64,000 bases of DNA from NCBI GenBank assembly GCA_963826115.1, contig CAWGVS010000010.1:256001-320000 (forward strand). The letters are read 5' to 3'. Numbering within the stretch: the first letter of the stretch is position 1; every line of letters begins with the position of its first letter. The DNA comes from an uncultured Candidatus Rokubacteria bacterium (GTDB taxonomy: Bacteria; Methylomirabilota; Methylomirabilia; Rokubacteriales; DASRDR01). Shown here in pieces: positions 7,031-32,882 of this stretch. Under the pieces are notes generated by a model. The model was not told the origin of the DNA and did no database searches. It saw only the letters and a program-made list of their open reading frames with translations. The position numbers were made by a program, and so were the translations under genes.

Positions 7031-9262
7031 CTAGTTGGTGCCCGCGCGCCAGCGGAAGGCGGTCAGGAGGCTGGAGAAGTTGTCGGTCCAGGGCGCGAGG
7101 TCCGGCGGCGCGTCGAGGGCCCGCCAGTGCGGGTCGTCGAGCAGCGCGCCGAGGTCCTTCCCGCGCCGGGCCAGCACCACCCACTGGGACTCGACCTTAC
7201 CCACGAGGCGCTCCTGGGGGTCGATGTGCGAGTCGTTCCGCGTGCGCGCGACGAGTCCCGCCGCCCGCGCGATGGCGCCGACGACGGGCTCGAGCACCAG
7301 GTGGCGGTTCGAGATGTTGAGGATCAGCACGCCGCCGGGGGCGAGCTTCGTCAGGTAGAGCTGGAACGCGTCGAGCGTGATGAGGTGGAGCGGCGGCGCG
7401 TCCGAGCTGTAGGCGTCGAGCACGATGAGGTCGTAGGCGGCGTCGGGGGCGCGGGCGATCGTGAGGCGAGCGTCGCCCAGGATGACGAGGGGCTTCGGCC
7501 CGCAGTCACGGAGCAGCGTGAAGAACCGGGGGTCGTTCGCGATCCGGAGCACCGTGGGGTCGATCTCGTAGAACGTCCACCGCTGGCCGGCCTGGCCGTA
7601 GCACGCGATCGATCCGGCCCCGAGGCCGACGACCGCCACTGCGGGCCGCGGCCCGACGGCGTAGATCGCCGGGAAGACCTGCCCGAGCGGCCCGCTCCGG
7701 TAGTAGTAGGTCAAGAGCTCCCGCCGCCGTCCCGGCGCGAGGGCCTGCATCCCGTGGAGCGTCGTCCCGTGGAGCAGCATGTGGTACGCGCCGCTCGGCG
7801 GCCGGGTGACACGCGAGACGCCGAAGAAGCTCCGCTCGGCGTAGAGGACTGGCCCTTCCTCGCCCCGGTAGACGGATCCGGCGACGAGCAGGACCGCGAG
7901 CCCGAGGGCGAAGCGCACCGGCCGGCGCGCGAAGGTGAGACAGATGAGCGTGACCACGCCCACGGCCGGCCCGATCGCTCCCGGTCCGGCGCCCACGCGC
8001 TCGAGGCCCCGGATCAGCCCGACCGTGACGCCCCCGAGCGCCAGGGGCAGCACCACGTCCAGGACCTGGCGCCGCGTCCCCGACCAGGCCGCGGGGGCCC
8101 GGGCCGGCAGGAGGGGGAGCAGCACCAGGACCAGCGGGTACTCGAAGATGTCGCGGAACACGCGCGGCGCGACCAGCGCCGTGAACGCGCCGCCGACCAC
8201 GCCGCCGCCGGCCATCCAGAGATAGAAGGCGGTGAGGTGCCGCGGATCGGGCCGGTCTTGCGCGAGCTCGCCGTGGCAGACCATCGCGGCGACGAAGAAG
8301 ACCGCGAGGTGTGTGCCGATCACGAGGACCAGCGGCTCGTTGGCCCGGGCCACCAGCACGAGCACGAGCGGCAGCAGGGCGACCGGGAGCACCTCCACCC
8401 ACAGGCGGTGCGGGACGATCCGCCGGCGGCCGAACACGAGGGCGAACGTCAGGAGGTAGAGCGCCAGCGGCACGATCCAGAGGAGCGGGATCGCCGCGAT
8501 GTCGGTGGAGAGATAGGTCGTGACGCTCAGCATGAGGCTCGACGGCACCGCGGCGAGGACGACCCATCGCGCGCAGCGGCCCGCGCCCAGCGGGGCGACG
8601 GCCGACGGCGCGGTCGCGCCGGCCGGCTCCCGGGCGGCGGGAGGCGCGGCCACCGGGTCGCCCGCCCGGGCTCGCGACCGCCACAGGGCGAGCGCGCAGC
8701 CGGCGGCGAGCAGGAGGAGCGCGCCGTAGCCCCAGGCCCAGAGCCGGCTTTGCGCCGGGAGCGGGAGGAGCCGCTCCACGACCAGCGGGTACGCGAGGAG
8801 CGCCAGCATGCTCCCGACGTTGCTCGCCGCGTAGAGCACGTACGGATCCCGGGCGGCCGGGTGGCCGGTGGCCGCGAACCACGCCTGGAGGACCGGGCTG
8901 GTCGCGGACACCGCGAAGAACGGGAGCCCCACCGCGGCGGCGAGAAGCCCCAGGAGCCACGGGATCGGGCTCGTGTGCCCGGGCGGGGTCCAGCCCGCCG
9001 GCAGGGCGATCGGCAGCGCGAGGAGCGGGACAAGAAGGATCAGGAGGTGGAGGCCGGCCTGCCGATGGACGCCGAGCCAGCGCGTGGTGACGTGGGCGTA
9101 CCCGTATCCGATCAGGAGCACCGCCTGGTAGAAGACCATCGCCGTGTTCCAGACCGCCGGCGCGCCGCCGAGGAGCGGCAGCGCCATCCGGGCGAACATG
9201 GGCTGGACCAGGAAGAGGAGGCTTGCGCCGACGAAGATCGTGGCGCCGAACAGGATCAGCAC
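7031..9262 (-). CDS. Fused MFS-like membrane domain / spermidine synthase-like SAM-dependent domain
   Basis: Multiple TM helices followed by HGTTLHG, VVGLGAG, YEIDP, GDARL, LDAYSSD and WTDNFS. Confidence 0.9.
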   Translation of the reverse strand: MLILFGATIFVGASLLFLVQPMFARMALPLLGGAPAVWNTAMVFYQAVLLIGYGYAHVTTRWLGVHRQAGLHLLILLVPLLALPIALPAGWTPPGHTSPIPWLLGLLAAAVGLPFFAVSATSPVLQAWFAATGHPAARDPYVLYAASNVGSMLALLAYPLVVERLLPLPAQSRLWAWGYGALLLLAAGCALALWRSRARAGDPVAAPPAAREPAGATAPSAVAPLGAGRCARWVVLAAVPSSLMLSVTTYLSTDIAAIPLLWIVPLALYLLTFALVFGRRRIVPHRLWVEVLPVALLPLVLVLVARANEPLVLVIGTHLAVFFVAAMVCHGELAQDRPDPRHLTAFYLWMAGGGVVGGAFTALVAPRVFRDIFEYPLVLVLLPLLPARAPAAWSGTRRQVLDVVLPLALGGVTVGLIRGLERVGAGPGAIGPAVGVVTLICLTFARRPVRFALGLAVLLVAGSVYRGEEGPVLYAERSFFGVSRVTRPPSGAYHMLLHGTTLHGMQALAPGRRRELLTYYYRSGPLGQVFPAIYAVGPRPAVAVVGLGAGSIACYGQAGQRWTFYEIDPTVLRIANDPRFFTLLRDCGPKPLVILGDARLTIARAPDAAYDLIVLDAYSSDAPPLHLITLDAFQLYLTKLAPGGVLILNISNRHLVLEPVVGAIARAAGLVARTRNDSHIDPQERLVGKVESQWVVLARRGKDLGALLDDPHWRALDAPPDLAPWTDNFSSLLTAFRWRAGTN

Positions 9263-23827: not shown

Positions 23828-23950
23828 CCGGAGACCCCCTGTGCTCGGCGCTGGTCGAATTTTCGGCGGCCATCATACCGTGCGTTGGCTGTGGTACGCT
23901 CGCCCCGCACGCCGGGCGGGCCCGAGGACGCTGGGTGCGGAGGTCCTCGC

Positions 23951-24616
23951 GTGAGCGTGACGCCTCTCGGTCAGGAGTCGGTGCCGGGCCGCGTGGTCCG
24001 GGTGATGGAGATTCCCGCGCGCCACGGCGCCGCGGTCGAGGTCGCCCGCGGGCTCGTGCTGCGCGTGATCGACGTCGAGGGCCAGCAGGTCGGCGACTTC
24101 GTCTGCTTCAACCGGGACGACCTCGACGAGCGGTACTCGCCTCAGAACACCGTGCTCTTCAACCGCACGATCTACCCGAAGGCGGGCGCCGCGCTCGTCT
24201 CCGACCGCGGACGGCCCATGATGCGCCTCGTCGCCGACACCGTGGGCATCCACGACCTCATCTGCGGGTCGTGCAGCGAGGAGTACTACCGGAACCGCCT
24301 CGACTACACGGGCCCGCACCGGAGCTGCCGCTCGAACCTGGCCGAGGCGTTGGCGCCCTGGGGCATCGAGCTCCAGGATGTGCCGTTCTCGTTCAACTTC
24401 TTCATGCAGTGGCCGGTGCAGCCCGACGGGGCGGTGCGGCCCATGGCGGCGCCCTCGCGGGCGGGCGACTACGTCGACCTCCTCGCCGAGATGGACGTGC
24501 TCGCGGCGAACTCCGCGTGCCCCTCGGACATCACGCCCACCAACGCCCACCGCCCGACGTCCATGCGGTTCGTGCTCTACGAGCCGGATCCCGGAGCCGC
24601 CGGGGCCGCCCGCTGA
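23951..24616 (+). CDS. Urea carboxylase-associated family (DUF1989) protein
   Basis: Motifs DVEGQQVGD, HDLICGSC, SCRSNL, GDYVDLLAEMD and SACPSD. The start codon is uncertain (23951, 23981 or 24005). Confidence 0.85.
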   Translation: MSVTPLGQESVPGRVVRVMEIPARHGAAVEVARGLVLRVIDVEGQQVGDFVCFNRDDLDERYSPQNTVLFNRTIYPKAGAALVSDRGRPMMRLVADTVGIHDLICGSCSEEYYRNRLDYTGPHRSCRSNLAEALAPWGIELQDVPFSFNFFMQWPVQPDGAVRPMAAPSRAGDYVDLLAEMDVLAANSACPSDITPTNAHRPTSMRFVLYEPDPGAAGAAR

Positions 24617-24621
24617 CGCGC

Positions 24622-26051
<1,430 letters not shown>

Positions 26052-26061
<10 letters not shown>

Positions 26062-26185
26062 ACTGTGCACCCTGCACTGTCTAGTGTGCAGCGTGGCATA
26101 ACATATTGATTCTGAACGAGTAATCACGCCGGAGGTCCCGTCGGGGCGCTCACTCCCGTGTAGGAAGTGCACAAGAAACAGTGCA
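26052..26185. promoter_or_regulatory. Three TGCAC-N8-GTGCA palindromes, probable enhancer (UAS) sites
   Basis: Sites at 26052-26069, 26073-26090 and 26168-26185. The half-sites match the NtrC-type TGCAC/GTGCA and lie 100-235 bp upstream of a sigma54 promoter. Confidence 0.75.
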
Positions 26186-26285
26186 CCGTGAACTAGTGAC
26201 GATACACCCCACCTGCTGTCGCTCCGATTCGGATTCATCCGTAACGGCCAGCACTTAGATCTCCGAAGCGGGCTCGGATCCCCCG

Positions 26286-26301
26286 TGGCCCCGCCATTGC
26301 T
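26286..26301 (+). promoter_or_regulatory. Sigma54 (-24/-12) promoter
   Basis: TGGCCCCGCCATTGCT has exact GG-N10-GC spacing with TGGC and TTGC. It lies directly downstream of a sigma54 activator gene and 63 bp before the first peptide gene. Confidence 0.8.
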
Positions 26302-26363
26302 CTCCGAGCCTGCGACACCCACACAAGGCGTCCCGTCTCGGGACGCATGGAGGAGGCCTGCCC

Positions 26364-26510
26364 ATGACCAAGAAGCTCACCGCAATCCTGGCGCTCATCG
26401 CGTCGTTCCTGCTGGTCGCGCCCGTGCTCGAGTCCGGGACGCCGAACCAGGTCCACGTCTTCCAAGCGGTCGGCGACGCGTGCGACAGCGGCGGTGGCGG
26501 CGGCTGGTAA
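26364..26510 (+). CDS. Small exported peptide precursor, copy 1 (48 aa): MTKKLTAILALIASFLLVAPVLESGTPNQVHVFQAVGDACDSGGGGGW
   Basis: [10 protein letters not shown] 7 nt before ATG. Signal-peptide-like N-terminus. Paralogous to the three downstream copies, with synonymous changes. Confidence 0.88.
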   Translation: MTKKLTAILALIASFLLVAPVLESGTPNQVHVFQAVGDACDSGGGGGW

Positions 26511-26580
26511 GCCCGGGTCCGATGCGGCGATTCCGAACCCAGTCCGAACCTGGTGGCGCGCTGCGGCGCGCCGGGAGGCC

Positions 26581-26727
26581 ATGATGGCAAGACTATTGGC
26601 GGCGCTGGTGGTGGTGGTGTCCTTCCTGCTCGTGGCGCCCGTGATCGAGTCCGGGACCCCGAGCCACGTGCACGTCTTCCAGGCGGTCGGCGACGCGTGC
26701 GACAGCGGCGGTGGCGGCGGCTGGTAG
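26581..26727 (+). CDS. Small exported peptide precursor, copy 2 (48 aa): MMARLLAALVVVVSFLLVAPVIESGTPSHVHVFQAVGDACDSGGGGGW
   Basis: GGAGG SD, tandem ATGATG (the second ATG may be the start), same length and core as the other copies. Confidence 0.88.
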   Translation: MMARLLAALVVVVSFLLVAPVIESGTPSHVHVFQAVGDACDSGGGGGW

Positions 26728-26798
26728 GCCCGGGCCCGGTGCGACGACTCTCAACCCCTTTCCGAACCCAGAGGCGCGCGACGGCGCGCATGGAGGCC

Positions 26799-26945
26799 AT
26801 GATGGCGAGACTATTGGCGGTGCTGACGGTGGTGGTGTCCTTCCTGCTCGTGGCGCCGGTGATCGAGTCCGGGACGCCGAACCAGGTCCACGTGTTCCAG
26901 GCGATCGGCAACGCCTCCGACAGCGGTGGTGGCGGCGGCTGGTAG
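26799..26945 (+). CDS. Small exported peptide precursor, copy 3 (48 aa): MMARLLAVLTVVVSFLLVAPVIESGTPNQVHVFQAIGNASDSGGGGGW
   Basis: GGAGG SD. This copy carries Ser in place of the conserved Cys. Confidence 0.88.
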   Translation: MMARLLAVLTVVVSFLLVAPVIESGTPNQVHVFQAIGNASDSGGGGGW

Positions 26946-27016
26946 GCCCGGGCCCGATGCGGCGACTCTCAACCCCTTTCCGAACCCAGAGGCGCGCGGC
27001 GGTGCGCTTGGAGGCT

Positions 27017-27163
27017 ATGATGGCGAAGTTATGGGTCGTGCTCGCGGTAATGGTGTCCTTCCTGCTCGTGGCGCCGGTGATCGAGTCCGGGACCCCGAGT
27101 CACGCGCGTGTGTTCCAGGCCGTGGGCGACGCCTGCGACAGCGGCGGCGGCGGCGGCTGGTAA
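27017..27163 (+). CDS. Small exported peptide precursor, copy 4 (48 aa): MMAKLWVVLAVMVSFLLVAPVIESGTPSHARVFQAVGDACDSGGGGGW
   Basis: GGAGG SD, same length and C-terminus as the other copies. Confidence 0.88.
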   Translation: MMAKLWVVLAVMVSFLLVAPVIESGTPSHARVFQAVGDACDSGGGGGW

Positions 27164-27180
27164 CCTCTCCGCAGGTTCGA

Positions 27181-28833
27181 ATGCGTCTCGCCGGGGCGGG
27201 ACCCCGCCCGCGACGCGGGCGGCAGGCCGCGGGTCTCCTCCTCGGGGCGATCGCGGGGGCGCTCTGGCTCTCGCTGGGCCTCTGGCCGTCGATGGCCGAG
27301 GCCCAGGAGCGCCCGCCGGCCCAGGCGGGCGGAGTGTACCGTCGCCCGCTCGGCAACGACCCGGCGACCCTCGACCCCGCTCGTCTGCGGGACATCTACA
27401 GTCTCGCGGTCGGGCAGCAGCTCTTCGACGGGCTGGTCCAGTTCGACCAGACGCTGAACATCACCCCGGCGCTGGCGCAGTTCTGGGTCGCCTCGCGTGA
27501 CTGGCTGACCTGGACCTTCACGCTGCGGAAGGGGGTCAAGTTCCACCACGGACGCGAGGTCACCTCGGACGACGTCGTGTACTCGTTCACGCGCCTCCTG
27601 GATCCCCGCCTGCGCTCGGGCGGGGCGGACCACTTCATGACGATCCAGGGGGCGCCGGAGTTCCGGGAAGGGAAGGCCAAGCAGGTCGCCGGCCTGGCGG
27701 CTCTCGATCGCTACACGGTGCGCGTCACCCTCACCGAGGCGTCGGTGCCGTTCGTCTCCATCCTCGCGGTCGGCCAGGCGAAGATCGTGCCGCGGGAGCT
27801 GGTCGAAGAGCAGGGGGAGGCGTTTGGGCTCCAGCCGGTGGGAACCGGCCCCTTCAAGTTCGTCCGCTGGGAGCGCGGGAAGGAGATCGTTCTCGCGGCC
27901 AATCCCGACTACTTCGACGGGCCGCCGAAGCTCGCGCGGCTCGTGTTTCGCATCTTTCCGGGCGAGCGCCTCGACAGCGTGTTCGCGGACTTCCAGGCCG
28001 GGAACCTCGAGGACAGCCCGATCCCGTCCAAGGACTACCGCCAGATCATTGCGAGCCAGGCCTACCAGTACTTCCGCCGGCCGATCTTCAGCCTGCGGCA
28101 CTACGGGCTCAACACCCGGATGAAGCCGCTGGACGACCGGCGGGTGCGCCAGGCGCTCGTCTACGCCATCGACCGCGAGGCCATCGTCGCGGATCCGTGG
28201 CTCGGCCGCTACGCGCTCGCGCGCGGCATCCTGCCGCCCGGGACGCTCGGGTTCAATCCGAAGCTTCGGGGCTATCCGTACGATCCCCCGCGCGCCCGGG
28301 AGCTCCTGGTCCAGGCGGGCTACCCCGGCGGGAAGGGCCTGCCCCCGATCGCGATCTGGTCCAGCGTACGCTCCGAGGAGATGCTGCGCGAGCACGAGCG
28401 CATCCGGAAGGACCTCGAGGCCGTCGGGGTGACCGCGGAGTTCCAGTACAGCCCGGACTGGCCGACGTACTCCAAGGCCATGTCCGAGCGGAAGCTGCCG
28501 GTCTTCCTCCGGGGCTGGCTCGCCGACGTGCCGGACCCCGAGAACTTCCTGGCCAAGCTCTTCCACTCCGCCAGCCCGTGGAACTACATGGGCTACGCGA
28601 ACGCGACCGTGGACGGCCTCCTCGAGAAGGCCCGGGCCGAGCCGGACGTGCCGCGCCGGGTCGAGGTTTACCGCCGGGCCGAGGAGCTCGTCATGGATGA
28701 CGCGCCCGTGATCCCGGTCTGGCACCAGACCTACGAGCGCCTCTTCCAGCCGTACGTCAAGGGTGTCGAGGTGAGCGGCCTCGGCGACGCGTACATCCCC
28801 TTCCGAAAGGTGTGGCTCGAGCGACCGCGCTGA
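27181..28833 (+). CDS. Family 5 (OppA/DppA-like) solute-binding protein with no adjacent permease or ATPase
   Basis: Signal peptide ending AEA-QE. Motifs DPATLDP, WTFTLRKGVKFHHG, PVGTGPFK and RVRQAL. Confidence 0.92.
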   Translation: MRLAGAGPRPRRGRQAAGLLLGAIAGALWLSLGLWPSMAEAQERPPAQAGGVYRRPLGNDPATLDPARLRDIYSLAVGQQLFDGLVQFDQTLNITPALAQFWVASRDWLTWTFTLRKGVKFHHGREVTSDDVVYSFTRLLDPRLRSGGADHFMTIQGAPEFREGKAKQVAGLAALDRYTVRVTLTEASVPFVSILAVGQAKIVPRELVEEQGEAFGLQPVGTGPFKFVRWERGKEIVLAANPDYFDGPPKLARLVFRIFPGERLDSVFADFQAGNLEDSPIPSKDYRQIIASQAYQYFRRPIFSLRHYGLNTRMKPLDDRRVRQALVYAIDREAIVADPWLGRYALARGILPPGTLGFNPKLRGYPYDPPRARELLVQAGYPGGKGLPPIAIWSSVRSEEMLREHERIRKDLEAVGVTAEFQYSPDWPTYSKAMSERKLPVFLRGWLADVPDPENFLAKLFHSASPWNYMGYANATVDGLLEKARAEPDVPRRVEVYRRAEELVMDDAPVIPVWHQTYERLFQPYVKGVEVSGLGDAYIPFRKVWLERPR

Positions 28834-28844
28834 TCGGGGCTGGG

Positions 28845-30764
28845 ATGAGGCGCCCGGTGTTCGTCTCGCTCCGCACGAAGCTCCTCACCGGCACGCTGCT
28901 CATCGTCGCCGTCCTCATGGCCGCCGTGACCGCGGTCGTCGAGCACCGGCAGCGGACGACCATCATCGAGGAGGTTCACCGGCGCGGGACGGCGATGGCG
29001 GAGGGCCTGGCCGGGGTCTCGGCGGGCGCGCTCCTCCTGTACAACTTCACCGCGCTCGAGCAGAACGTCGTCCGCTTCGACCGCGAGACCGACGTCGTCT
29101 CCGCGATGATCCTCGACCGTTTCGGCCAGGTGGTGGCGCACAGCCGGACGCCCGCCGCGGTGGGGTCGACGCTGTCGGACCCGGTGTCGCTCCGCGCCCT
29201 CTCGGCCGCGCCCGTGCTCCAGGAGACGGCCGGGCCGGACGGCGAGGCTCTCTACGACGTCGCCGTGCCCATCCTCGTCGAGGGAGTCCGGTGGGGCACG
29301 GTGCGGATCGCGCTGTCGCGCCAGCGCATGGACGCGGAGATCTCGGGCACGCGGCGCGAGCTGGCCATGGTCGCGGTGGTCGCCCTCGTGCTGGGCGGGC
29401 TGGCGACGGTGATCGTCGGCCGCCGGATGACCCGGCCGGTCCGCCAGCTCGCCGACGGCGTCGCCGCGATCGCGCGCGGCGAGCTGGACCAGCGCATCGA
29501 ACCCGGCCGGTCCGACGAGCTGGGTCGCCTGGCGCTCGCCTTCAACGAGATGGCGGCCCAGCTCCGGCAGCAGCGGACGGACCTCGAGGTTGCCGACGCC
29601 GCGCTCCGCCAGCGGTTCGCGGAGCTCTCCGACCTCAAGAGCTACACCGACCACATCCTCCGGTCGTTCGTGAACGGCCTGGTGACGCTCGACCTGGACG
29701 GCCGGGTGGTCACCGTGAACCCCGCGGCGGAGGCCCTCACGGGCCGCGCGGCGGCCGAGCTCACCGGGCGCCCGACGACGGAGACGTTCCAGAACGCGCC
29801 GGAGCTCCGGGACCTGCTCCTCGAGACGCTGCGAACCCGGGTCGGCGTGCCCCACGTGTCGCTGATGCTGCCCCGGGGCGACGGCCCGCCGGTCCCGGTG
29901 GAGGTCACCACGACGCCCCTCCGCGGGGCCGAGGGGCAGGCGCTCGGCGTGGTGGCGATCCTCCGCGACCTCACCCCCGTTCGCCAGCTGGAGGAGCAGC
30001 TGCGGCGCTCCGACCGCCTCGCGGCGCTCGGCACCCTGGCCGCCGGCCTGGCCCACGAGATCAAGAACCCGCTCACCTCCATCATGACGTTCAGCCGCCA
30101 CATCGCCCGGCGATTCGACGACGAGCGGTTTCGGCAGCGGTTCCAGAGCGTCGTCCCGCGGGAGCTCGAGCGCATCAACGCGATCGTCGACGGGCTCCTC
30201 CGGCTCGCCCGGCCCGCGCGCCTGGTCCTGGCGCCGGTGCACGTGCCGCCCCTCATCGAGCAGGCCCTCGAGCTCTACGCTCCGCAGATCGAGGCCCGCC
30301 GCATCCGCGTGCGGCGCGAGTGGCCGATCGGCATGCCGCCCATCCCGGGGGACACGGAGCACCTCTACCAGGCCTTCCTGAATCTCGTCGCGAACGCGAT
30401 CGACGCGATGGAAGAGGAAGGGGGGACGCTCACCCTGCGCCTCGGCTGGCCCCGGGACGCCGACGGGCTCGGCCACGCCGTGCGCGACCGGGTGGTGCTG
30501 GAGGTGATCGACACGGGGAGCGGCATCAAGCCCGAGGAGACGCCCGAAGTCTTCAACCCGTTCTTCACCACGAAGTCGGGGGGCACCGGGCTCGGTCTCG
30601 CCATCGCCCACAAGATCATCGAGGATCACGGAGGCACGGTGACGTTCCGGAGCAGCCCCGGCCAGGGGACGGTGTTCACCGTGGTGCTCCCGGTCCGCGC
30701 CGGCCGGCACGCCGAGCCCCTGGTCCGCGGGGAGTGGCGAGTCGGGGGTCAGGCTCCCCCGTGA
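28845..30764 (+). CDS. Membrane sensor histidine kinase (TM-periplasmic-TM-HAMP-PAS-HisKA-HATPase), NtrB-like
   Basis: HAMP DELGRLALAFNEM, PAS VNPAAEALTG, H-box LAHEIKNPL, N-box NLVANAIDA, DTGSGI, FNPFFTTK, GTGLGL. Confidence 0.94.
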   Translation: MRRPVFVSLRTKLLTGTLLIVAVLMAAVTAVVEHRQRTTIIEEVHRRGTAMAEGLAGVSAGALLLYNFTALEQNVVRFDRETDVVSAMILDRFGQVVAHSRTPAAVGSTLSDPVSLRALSAAPVLQETAGPDGEALYDVAVPILVEGVRWGTVRIALSRQRMDAEISGTRRELAMVAVVALVLGGLATVIVGRRMTRPVRQLADGVAAIARGELDQRIEPGRSDELGRLALAFNEMAAQLRQQRTDLEVADAALRQRFAELSDLKSYTDHILRSFVNGLVTLDLDGRVVTVNPAAEALTGRAAAELTGRPTTETFQNAPELRDLLLETLRTRVGVPHVSLMLPRGDGPPVPVEVTTTPLRGAEGQALGVVAILRDLTPVRQLEEQLRRSDRLAALGTLAAGLAHEIKNPLTSIMTFSRHIARRFDDERFRQRFQSVVPRELERINAIVDGLLRLARPARLVLAPVHVPPLIEQALELYAPQIEARRIRVRREWPIGMPPIPGDTEHLYQAFLNLVANAIDAMEEEGGTLTLRLGWPRDADGLGHAVRDRVVLEVIDTGSGIKPEETPEVFNPFFTTKSGGTGLGLAIAHKIIEDHGGTVTFRSSPGQGTVFTVVLPVRAGRHAEPLVRGEWRVGGQAPP

Positions 30765-31208
30765 GCGGGCCGGCCGCGGGCGCGCAGCACGAAGGCGCGC
30801 CGCCGCCCCCGGGGGATCCCCCGCGAGCCCTCCTCGTCGAGGACGAGCGCTTCGTGGGCGAGCTCCTGGCCGAGTACCTCTCCCTGGAAGGGTACGAGGT
30901 CGATCGGGCGATGGACGGGCGGGAGGCGCTCGCACTCGTGCGGCAGCGCGACTATGCTCTGATCGTCAGCGACGTGCGGATGCCGGACGTCGACGGCCCG
31001 ACTCTCTACCGCGAGCTCCAGGTCGCGCGCCCCGAGCTGGCGCGGCGCATGGTGTTCGTCACCGGGGACGTCGTCAGCACCGGGACGCGCCGGTTCCTCG
31101 ACGAGACGTGCCTCCGCTACCTGGAGAAGCCGTTCACGATCGCGCAGTTCCAGAGGGTGGTGCAGGGGGTGCTGGCGGCGCCACCGCCGCCGGGCCGCGG
31201 ACCGGCGG

Positions 31209-31216
<8 letters not shown>
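30761..31216 (+). CDS. Stand-alone response regulator receiver protein
   Basis: GTG overlaps the kinase TGA. Motifs LLVEDE, SDVRMP, VTG and EKPF. No output domain. Confidence 0.88.

Positions 31217-32882
<1,666 letters not shown>

Follow-up and report, generated by a model that had tools for sequence, protein, structure and literature searches.

We describe a compact signaling cassette found in a 64,000-nucleotide stretch of DNA (here, the window) from an uncultured Candidatus Rokubacteria bacterium (GenBank assembly GCA_963826115.1; contig CAWGVS010000010.1, positions 256,001 to 320,000). The cassette contains four tandem genes for small proteins, which stand between a gene for an NtrC-type sigma-54-dependent response regulator and genes for an orphan periplasmic substrate-binding protein (SBP) of family 5 and a sensor histidine kinase (Table 1). 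The gene order (i.e., NtrC-type regulator, palindromes plus a -24/-12 promoter, one to five peptide genes, orphan SBP, and Cache-HAMP-PAS kinase) is retained in relatives. On the basis of gene content, conservation, and synteny, we propose that the small proteins may be the built-in ligand or modulator of the SBP-kinase pair in a self-regulated periplasmic peptide-sensing circuit, a proposal to which we give even credence.

The four open reading frames (ORFs) are genuine small-protein genes under purifying selection. The region from 26321 to 27191 consists of four head-to-tail 218-nucleotide (nt) units (69 to 88% identity to the reference unit in a repeat search), each with one 147-nt ORF and one GGAGG-type Shine-Dalgarno sequence. 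Four genes of this length had been noted in the first-pass annotation of the window, and the sequence, the ORF list, and the repeat search all confirm them. The stop codons of copies 1 to 4 are TAA, TAG, TAG, and TAA. The distance from GGAGG in copies 2 to 4 is 2 nt to the first ATG and 5 nt to the second. Since the second ATG is the better spaced of the two and matches the position at which relatives mostly start (29-sequence alignment), the true products of copies 2 to 4 are probably 47 amino acids (aa) long. The same annotation had reported that the list of ORFs missed copy 1 and gave the other copies only in spurious extended versions. The second part of that statement stands (copies 2 to 4 are listed only as over-extended ORFs of 77, 130, and 150 aa), while copy 1 is correctly listed in the ORF list examined here.

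A comparison of the four copies showed that the amino acid is altered in 10 of the 12 variable codon columns of residues 1 to 13, while residues 14 to 48 contain 11 variable columns with synonymous changes only and 8 with amino acid changes. For residues 14 to 48, the pairwise dN values are 0.03 to 0.10 versus dS values of 0.26 to 0.86 (dN/dS, ~0.07 to 0.3). The selection at the protein level that had been claimed for the peptides therefore holds for residues 14 to 48. Residues 1 to 13 are variable, as had also been remarked, and their basic-then-hydrophobic character was upheld. Each product has a short basic N terminus, a hydrophobic run of 18 to 22 residues (a length that fits either a membrane anchor or a cleavable signal), and a C-terminal part of ~25 residues, which we infer to face the periplasm. 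In this genome, Lys and Arg are missing from the sequence that follows Glu23, and routine proteomics based on trypsin would therefore overlook that region. Across the whole genome (6.2 Mb), the only peptide matches are the four copies of the array. A perfect 6- to 8-base-pair GC-rich stem-loop lies just 5' of the Shine-Dalgarno sequence of copies 1 to 3 (i.e., 26326-26346, 26555-26572, and 26773-26790); the spacers between copies fold no better than shuffled sequences (z, -0.64 to +1.41), and no claim is drawn from these stems.

The small-protein family is new to the curated libraries searched (i.e., Pfam and NCBIfam). No model of these libraries matched the peptide at an E value of ≤10 except for one chance match (E = 0.2) far under its cut-off. 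Of 41 related genomes, 32 carry a homolog at E ≤ 1.3e-6 and 35 do so at E ≤ 1; in a sample of 251 genomes from the phylum, homologs were detected in 117 at E ≤ 1e-4. All relatives are metagenome-assembled genomes, and both tallies include three unpublished ones (G038, G113, and G244). At the family level, the peptide is present in 18/20 genomes of family f1 and 91/159 genomes of family f2, in which whole genera are without it (0/10 and 0/21). Family f7 gave weak matches (4/21), and families f8 (0/15) and f13 (0/20) gave none. The copy number is one in most genomes and two to five in the genus of the window. When 1.84 billion representative proteins were searched with a profile, 66 clusters were recovered at E ≤ 1e-3 (39 at E ≤ 1e-10), and the 27 clusters that were fetched comprise short or mis-extended versions of the peptide and two unrelated long proteins. 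One match from this search, P0064 (3,322 aa), was rejected as an SprB-repeat/CHU_C protein with a chance match to its Gly-rich sequence. A protein atlas returned unnamed clusters only (0.87 to 0.89, under the 0.9 level taken as a lead). Six peptide-bearing contigs are binned under other phyla; these contigs look like Rokubacteria, since they carry the same module, SBPs with 60 to 69% identity, and a G+C content of 61 to 69%.

Conservation within the family is concentrated in the middle of the peptide. In an alignment of 29 sequences, L16, P20, E23, F33, A35, G37, and A39 are invariant and S14, A19, V21, I22, S24, G25, and T26 are at least 90% conserved, while residues 1 to 13, residues 27 to 31, and the C-terminal tail are variable. 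Two blocks are conserved across the order (i.e., SFLLVAPVIESGT and VFQA[VI]G[NT]A). Each invariant residue is specified by three to five synonymous codons among the 29 orthologues; therefore, the conservation acts at the protein level. Cysteine occurs in just 14 of the 29 aligned members, and neither Cys nor Trp is conserved in the family. In another order of the class, all that remains of the peptide is the pattern P-x-x-E ... VF-x-x-[VI]G-x-A-[DE]-Gly-run, and the gene order is kept there although the peptide has much diverged.

The tail (3 to 9 residues) is the least conserved part of the peptide across relatives. It consists of an acidic residue and a Gly run of varying length and ends in W, D, E, G, F, M, S, or P (e.g., CDGGGGGGW, CDGDGGGGW, EDGGGGW, DDGGF, SDGAGD, and AEGAGD). 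The tail (C/S)DSGGGGGW is the same in all four copies of this genome; the "invariant" DSGGGGGW of the first-pass annotation is thus genome specific, because the tails of relatives vary in length and in the last residue. The layout proposed together with it (i.e., signal peptide, pro-region, and a mature nonapeptide core that cleavage after G-D/N-A would release) is not supported in that form, for the proposed nonapeptide is the least conserved part and the supposed end of the signal peptide and pro-region are the most conserved. A combination of conserved flanks and a variable tail fits a species-specific signal with processing sites and also fits a floppy tail on a conserved core.

The arrays of the genus display two further features. 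Two N-terminal paralogue types are present, with the first copy of "type A" (...LTAIL...) and later copies of "type B" (...VWTVL...). These types, defined by residues 1 to 13, are common to several species of the genus (the window array and L024 to L028), and therefore the duplication is older than speciation. Despite the A/B N termini, the C-terminal tails are alike within each genome and unlike between genomes in the same set of loci. This likeness within genomes could reflect gene conversion of the 3' half or co-selection, and the nucleotide data fit both.

The position of the peptide genes ties them to the SBP and the kinase. The SBP gene begins 17 nt past copy 4, and the kinase gene is followed by an ABC-F gene in convergent orientation, which marks the end of the unit. 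In 15 of 20 wide loci of relatives, the order regulator-peptide(s)-SBP-kinase is intact on one strand, and three more loci end at contig ends with the order kept (the two deviating loci are treated below). The regulator orthologues upstream of the peptide genes in relatives share 62 to 95% identity with that of the window. Among 65 further loci, 44 carry the regulator, SBP, and kinase, while the remaining 21, many of which are short or stop at a contig end, carry the regulator and SBP (11 loci), the SBP and kinase (6 loci), or a single partner (4 loci). Absence is also shared. All five near-complete genomes (96 to 100%) without the peptide are without an SBP orthologue as well (best matches, 32 to 40% identity versus 59 to 88% for orthologues), and the two best of these matches are ordinary tandem SBP pairs with no kinase and no regulator. 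The four parts are syntenic and appear to be lost together, and they therefore behave as one inherited unit. The link to an oligopeptide-binding protein suggested in the first-pass annotation is strongly backed by this context (i.e., by the adjacent SBP gene and its synteny throughout the lineage).

The comparison of loci also revealed variants of the module. Relatives in family f2 carry, after the kinase, an extra hybrid kinase/receiver or stand-alone receiver gene (L032:11587-12813, L040:3323-4465, L037:11740-13338, and L036:3898-4293), which points to an extended phosphorelay not present in the family of the window. At locus L035 (G024:C53, 4680-7855), two tandem family-5 SBP genes lie between the peptide gene and the kinase gene, and their products share 62% and 45% identity with the SBP of the window.

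The SBP is DppA/OppA-like and begins with a signal sequence, and its gene has neither a permease gene nor an ATPase gene as a neighbor. The genome encodes ~50 family-5 SBP paralogues with ≤34% identity to it, and the SBP of the window is alone among them in having both a kinase gene and a gene for a sigma-54 regulator within 6 kb. Among proteins of solved structure, it is closest to binders of peptides, dipeptides, and heme (8upi, DppA [1dpp], and HbpA), to OppA, and to the pheromone binder PrgZ. A W-x-x-D...DPDNF block is common to the SBP and DppA, with W446 invariant and D449 present in at least 90% of the orthologue rows. In DppA and OppA, the Asp equivalent to D449 presumably anchors a bound peptide by its free alpha-amino group. 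Were this the case here, the ligand would have a free N terminus in the periplasm, which would favor a cleaved product over an uncleaved anchor with its N terminus inside the cell. A complex prediction for the SBP (residues 44 to 550; 18-row alignment) and the peptide (residues 19 to 48) gave ipSAE values of 0.03 and 0.02, where the mark is 0.32; these values, obtained without controls, speak neither for nor against binding.

The start of the kinase is likely a conserved Met at 28845, 12 nt past the stop codon of the SBP gene, as indicated by a comparison of orthologue N termini. Its sCache_3_2 domain (residues 49 to 180) lies between hydrophobic segments and ahead of the HAMP domain, and its best NCBIfam match is AtoS-like, under the curated cut-off. 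As in SBP-dependent sensors, the SBP gene adjoins the kinase gene without a cognate transporter, and the sensor domain is located between two transmembrane (TM) segments. The lack of transporter genes beside it, its kinase and regulator neighbors, and the conserved block that it shares with DppA make the SBP look like a sensor part.

The upstream region points to sigma-54-dependent transcription. The element TGGCCC-N5-TTGCT, located 78 nt before the start codon of copy 1, is the sole strict match to TGGC-N7-TTGCW in the 64-kb window. With the looser pattern TGGC-N7-TTGC, exactly one match was found in each of the 20 upstream regions analyzed, and 18 of the 20 are at -74 to -113. The exceptions are L030, in which the element lies ~77 nt before a frameshifted first copy, and L043, in which it lies at -320. 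The 20 regions also contain 49 palindrome matches, whereas 200 shuffles gave 3.1 on average and never more than 9, and the positions of the palindromes are kept in eight loci of the genus. An rpoN gene is present in the genome; a promoter with -24 GG and -12 GC, upstream sites, rpoN, and an activator gene are thus all in place. The regulator, whose start codon is uncertain, comprises a receiver domain (from ~24667), an AAA+ sigma-54 interaction domain, and a Fis-type helix-turn-helix domain. Scans of positions 25900 to 31300 for sigma-70-like promoters and intrinsic terminators found none. Since the gap after the array is only 17 nt and the scans found no such promoter or terminator between the array and the kinase gene, the peptide, SBP, and kinase genes are most simply read as one sigma-54-dependent operon. 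Judging from its adjacency, the NtrC-type regulator probably drives the promoter through the three palindromes.

We suggest the following mechanism for the cassette. The small proteins would be inserted into or exported across the membrane through the N-terminal hydrophobic segment. Their extracytoplasmic part, either freed by signal peptidase or tethered, would be recognized by the SBP-kinase pair, with the DppA/OppA-type SBP acting as a co-sensor of the Cache-domain histidine kinase. The kinase would then set the phosphorylation of the sigma-54 regulator, which would control the promoter ahead of the peptide genes. With such feedback from the kinase through the regulator to the peptide promoter, the cassette would be a self-contained autoregulatory circuit, in which the sign of the loop may be positive (i.e., autoinduction) or negative (i.e., MgrB-like). 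The recognized fragment may be the variable tail, a 24-mer that begins at G25, or the conserved boundary segment; as a parallel to the last of these, the enterococcal pheromones derive from signal peptides. We infer four of the steps, namely, the activator of the promoter, the export and cleavage of the peptide, its binding to the SBP or kinase, and the sign of the feedback.

A more specific form of the proposal is a peptide autoinduction circuit in a diderm phylum, with a Sec-exported peptide and a dedicated SBP that gates a Cache kinase and a sigma-54 activator. In this form, the fast-evolving acidic Gly-rich tail would be a small, porin-permeant, species-specific "pherotype" signal (e.g., CDSGGGGGW in the window genome and SDGAGD and EDGGGGW in congeners), and the conserved blocks would be processing or recognition sites. 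Signals that form pherotypes typically show a variable tail next to conserved flanks. We advance the autoinduction circuit tentatively, as possible without being probable.

Several observations weigh against the proposed circuit or its details. The strongest conservation in the peptide (i.e., P20, E23, and their neighbors) straddles the membrane boundary, a pattern that suits a modulator anchored in the membrane no less than a ligand that is released. Most members have Ser directly behind the invariant Glu, and the distant family has Ile or Leu there (with [IL]-x-S always within 3 residues); hence, a signal peptidase site is not obviously fixed at one position. A cell-to-cell role is doubtful for a peptide of ~24 residues without further processing, because such a periplasmic peptide would not easily cross the outer membrane. 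With regard to the promoter, the strict match is insignificant when the window is taken alone, since at least one match occurs in 23 of 100 shuffles. The triple-palindrome layout (i.e., two TGCACAGT-N2-ACTGTGCA-type sites at a distance of 21 nt, followed by a third one 82 to 103 nt further on) also occurs at ~10 other loci of the genome (G000), where the neighboring genes are mutually unrelated. These loci include C1:22200, C6:38941, C6:566280, C6:778055, C6:805636, C6:1035917, C10:55132, C10:60382, C12:568900, and C12:684500, and at three of the ~10, a strict sigma-54-like element is located no more than 400 nt away. Because the layout recurs in this manner, a wider regulon or control by another or a related activator is possible, and the ~10 loci may form the regulon of this activator or a related one. 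Finally, two of the 20 wide loci deviate from the common order. L031 has no regulator within 8 kb, and L030 (G004:C18, ~8050-9130), in a congener, has kept the SBP but has neither regulator nor kinase. The array of L030 consists of intact 44-aa copies interleaved with frameshifted copies, and the locus is either a decaying module or an assembly artifact.

The conservation at the membrane boundary brings to mind a modulator of the MgrB type, in which the small protein would remain uncleaved in the inner membrane with its N terminus inside and its C terminus outside and would contact the TM/Cache region of the kinase or tether the SBP, as feedback induced by the two-component system. MgrB is a protein of ~47 aa with an N-terminal TM segment and is induced by the system that it regulates. 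The size of the peptides (42 to 48 aa), their basic N terminus, their 18- to 22-residue hydrophobic run, and their short periplasmic tail all suit such a role, as does the placement of their genes behind a promoter that is probably under the control of the neighboring two-component system. Conservation that peaks in and just after the hydrophobic segment and is held at the protein level would, moreover, be unusual for a disposable signal peptide. Yet the peptide family is related in sequence to no Pfam or NCBIfam family, MgrB included, and has no conserved cysteine. The two to five tandem copies in the genus suggest a high demand for the product, which would be unusual for a protein that pairs stoichiometrically with a kinase, and a dedicated peptide-type SBP with the conserved Asp (to which we attribute the role in ligand binding assumed above) is left unexplained. 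Considering both sides, we regard an MgrB-like modulator as fairly unlikely.

An alternative places the peptides at the output of the system instead of its input. The SBP and kinase would sense an external compound (e.g., an environmental oligopeptide), and the small proteins would be a regulated secreted or envelope product with an antimicrobial, surface-active, or protective role, not the ligand. Family-5 SBPs do bind many external ligands, the operon has no other obvious target gene, and the peptide genes come first behind the sigma-54 promoter and are amplified in the genus. An output effector is nevertheless unlikely, given that the co-occurrence of the peptide, SBP, and kinase and their fixed order across the class are unusually tight for a mere target gene, that the peptide is unlike known bacteriocin families, and that no conserved immunity or export genes are found nearby.

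A ribosomally synthesized and posttranslationally modified peptide (RiPP) precursor, in which the conserved blocks would be a leader for enzymes encoded elsewhere and the Gly-rich Cys/Trp tail the modified core, is highly improbable: the near-identical short tandem precursors with conserved upstream blocks and a variable C-terminal "core," together with a YcaO gene near the module in one of five f2 loci (L034), are outweighed by the lack of any modifying enzyme, peptidase, or exporter that is adjacent or conserved by the module, by the poor conservation of Cys and Trp, and by the N-terminal Sec-type hydrophobic segment, which RiPP leaders typically do not have. No modifying enzyme, dedicated protease, or exporter gene is adjacent to the array in the window, and none is conserved by the module in the 20 wide loci; the statement of the first-pass annotation that no RiPP-modifying enzyme or dedicated protease is adjacent was correct. 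The YcaO-domain gene at L034:10946-12307 is located ~1.3 kb past the regulator gene; it is 1 of 10 flanking ORFs at these five loci and is unconserved elsewhere.

Among known systems, the closest in architecture to the built-in ligand or modulator proposed here are kinases stimulated by SBPs, which include the family-5 CBP/ChiS and the sigma-54 system AioX/AioS, according to a review of SBP signaling (PMC8050422). The systems CBP/ChiS (Vibrio), AioX/AioS/AioR, LuxP/LuxQ, and TorT/TorS that appear there likewise combine an orphan SBP gene with an adjoining gene for a kinase with a periplasmic sensor domain; CBP belongs to family 5 like the SBP of the window, and AioXSR ends in a sigma-54 activator like the cassette (PMC8050422). 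The ligand of such SBP-assisted kinases is an environmental small molecule, whereas the cassette contains a syntenic gene-encoded small protein, presumably under the control of its own circuit's promoter. In operation, the cassette would thus come closest to a two-component sensor assisted by an SBP, with the ligand or modulator encoded within the cassette itself. Such a cassette is not present in the part of the review available (PMC8050422), nor is it described in the literature searched on Rokubacteria, sigma-54, quorum sensing, and SBP co-sensors, as judged by titles and the beginnings of abstracts.

Resemblances to gene-encoded peptide signaling are partial. As is generally known, comCDE and agrBDCA of Firmicutes also combine a short precursor, co-located with a kinase and a regulator and presumably autoinduced, with conserved blocks that flank a variable segment. 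The cassette differs from them in that it has no C39-peptidase ABC exporter or AgrB (export would be of the Sec type), an SBP is interposed, the regulator is a sigma-54 activator, and the host is a probable diderm. The Phr/Rap and enterococcal pheromone/PrgZ systems share with our reading of the cassette a small Sec-dependent precursor and an OppA-family binding protein, and PrgZ is among the solved relatives of the SBP. A Phr precursor gene is paired with a Rap/RRNPP receptor gene, which it usually follows directly, and the mature product is a C-terminal penta- or hexapeptide. The peptides of these systems are imported by Opp and act on cytoplasmic receptors of the RRNPP type, whereas the cassette, which comes from a different taxon, has neither a Rap/RRNPP protein nor a permease. 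The "Phr-type" label given in the first-pass annotation must therefore be dropped: no Rap/RRNPP tetratricopeptide repeat receptor and no Opp permease accompany the peptides, and their partners, in relatives as in the window, are a histidine kinase and a sigma-54 regulator. Like the cassette peptide, MgrB of the PhoQ feedback system has ~47 aa, an N-terminal TM segment, and a periplasmic C terminus; the peptide differs from it in sequence, in the lack of conserved cysteines, in tandem amplification, and in the presence of a dedicated SBP.

RNA-library contigs provide a weak hint that the peptide genes are expressed. A 151-nt contig is identical to part of copy 4 (Table 1), and a second contig (244 nt; depth, 7.9) carries the peptide gene of a relative. 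These runs are available as contigs, which give no strand, transcript ends, or levels and may include DNA carry-over. Two of the runs (X19 and X20) give identical figures and are apparently a single data set deposited under two entries. The runs leave most of the SBP and kinase genes uncovered, which is not usable as a finding.

Just upstream of the regulator gene, a 243-codon ORF with high third-position G+C content is present on the plus strand of the window (23885-24616), in a frame other than that of the long spurious ORF at 23935-26061.

Table 1. Features of the cassette, with positions in the window (+, forward strand;., no strand assigned)
Feature	Position	Strand	Basis or remark
NtrC-type sigma-54-dependent response regulator	24655-26061	+	Pfam Response_reg, Sigma54_activat, AAA_lid_14, HTH_8
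Enhancer-like palindrome 1, TGCAC-N8-GTGCA	26052-26069	.	Repeat and pattern searches
Enhancer-like palindrome 2	26073-26090	.	21 nt after palindrome 1
Enhancer-like palindrome 3	26168-26185	.	Pattern search
Sigma-54-type -24/-12 element, TGGCCC-N5-TTGCT	26286-26301	+	78 nt before the start codon of copy 1
Repeat units	26321-26538, 26538-26755, 26756-26973, 26974-27191		Repeat search
Peptide gene copy 1	26364-26510	+	48 aa, "type A" N terminus
Peptide gene copy 2	26581-26727	+	Probable product, 47 aa from 26584 (48 aa if started at the first ATG)
Peptide gene copy 3	26799-26945	+	Tail with Ser where the other copies have Cys; VFQA-G-A block with Ile and Asn
Peptide gene copy 4	27017-27163	+	RNA-library contig identical over 27006-27126
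Orphan periplasmic family-5 SBP (DppA/OppA-like)	27181-28833	+	Pfam SBP_bac_5, E = 5.5e-87
Sensor histidine kinase	28812-30764	+	TM, sCache_3_2, TM, HAMP, PAS, HisKA, HATPase (domains from Pfam)

Gene-encoded peptide signaling is textbook knowledge in Firmicutes and is rare and poorly understood in diderms, and the Rokubacteria are abundant soil organisms without a cultured member. The cassette brings together a candidate signal, receptor, transducer, regulator, and promoter in a compact, conserved segment of ~6 kb and thus lends itself to direct testing and to reconstruction in Escherichia coli. It also adds a new small-protein family that gene callers mis-extend. If the proposed circuit is true, a gene-encoded peptide would join the short list of ligands that act on sensor kinases via binding proteins.

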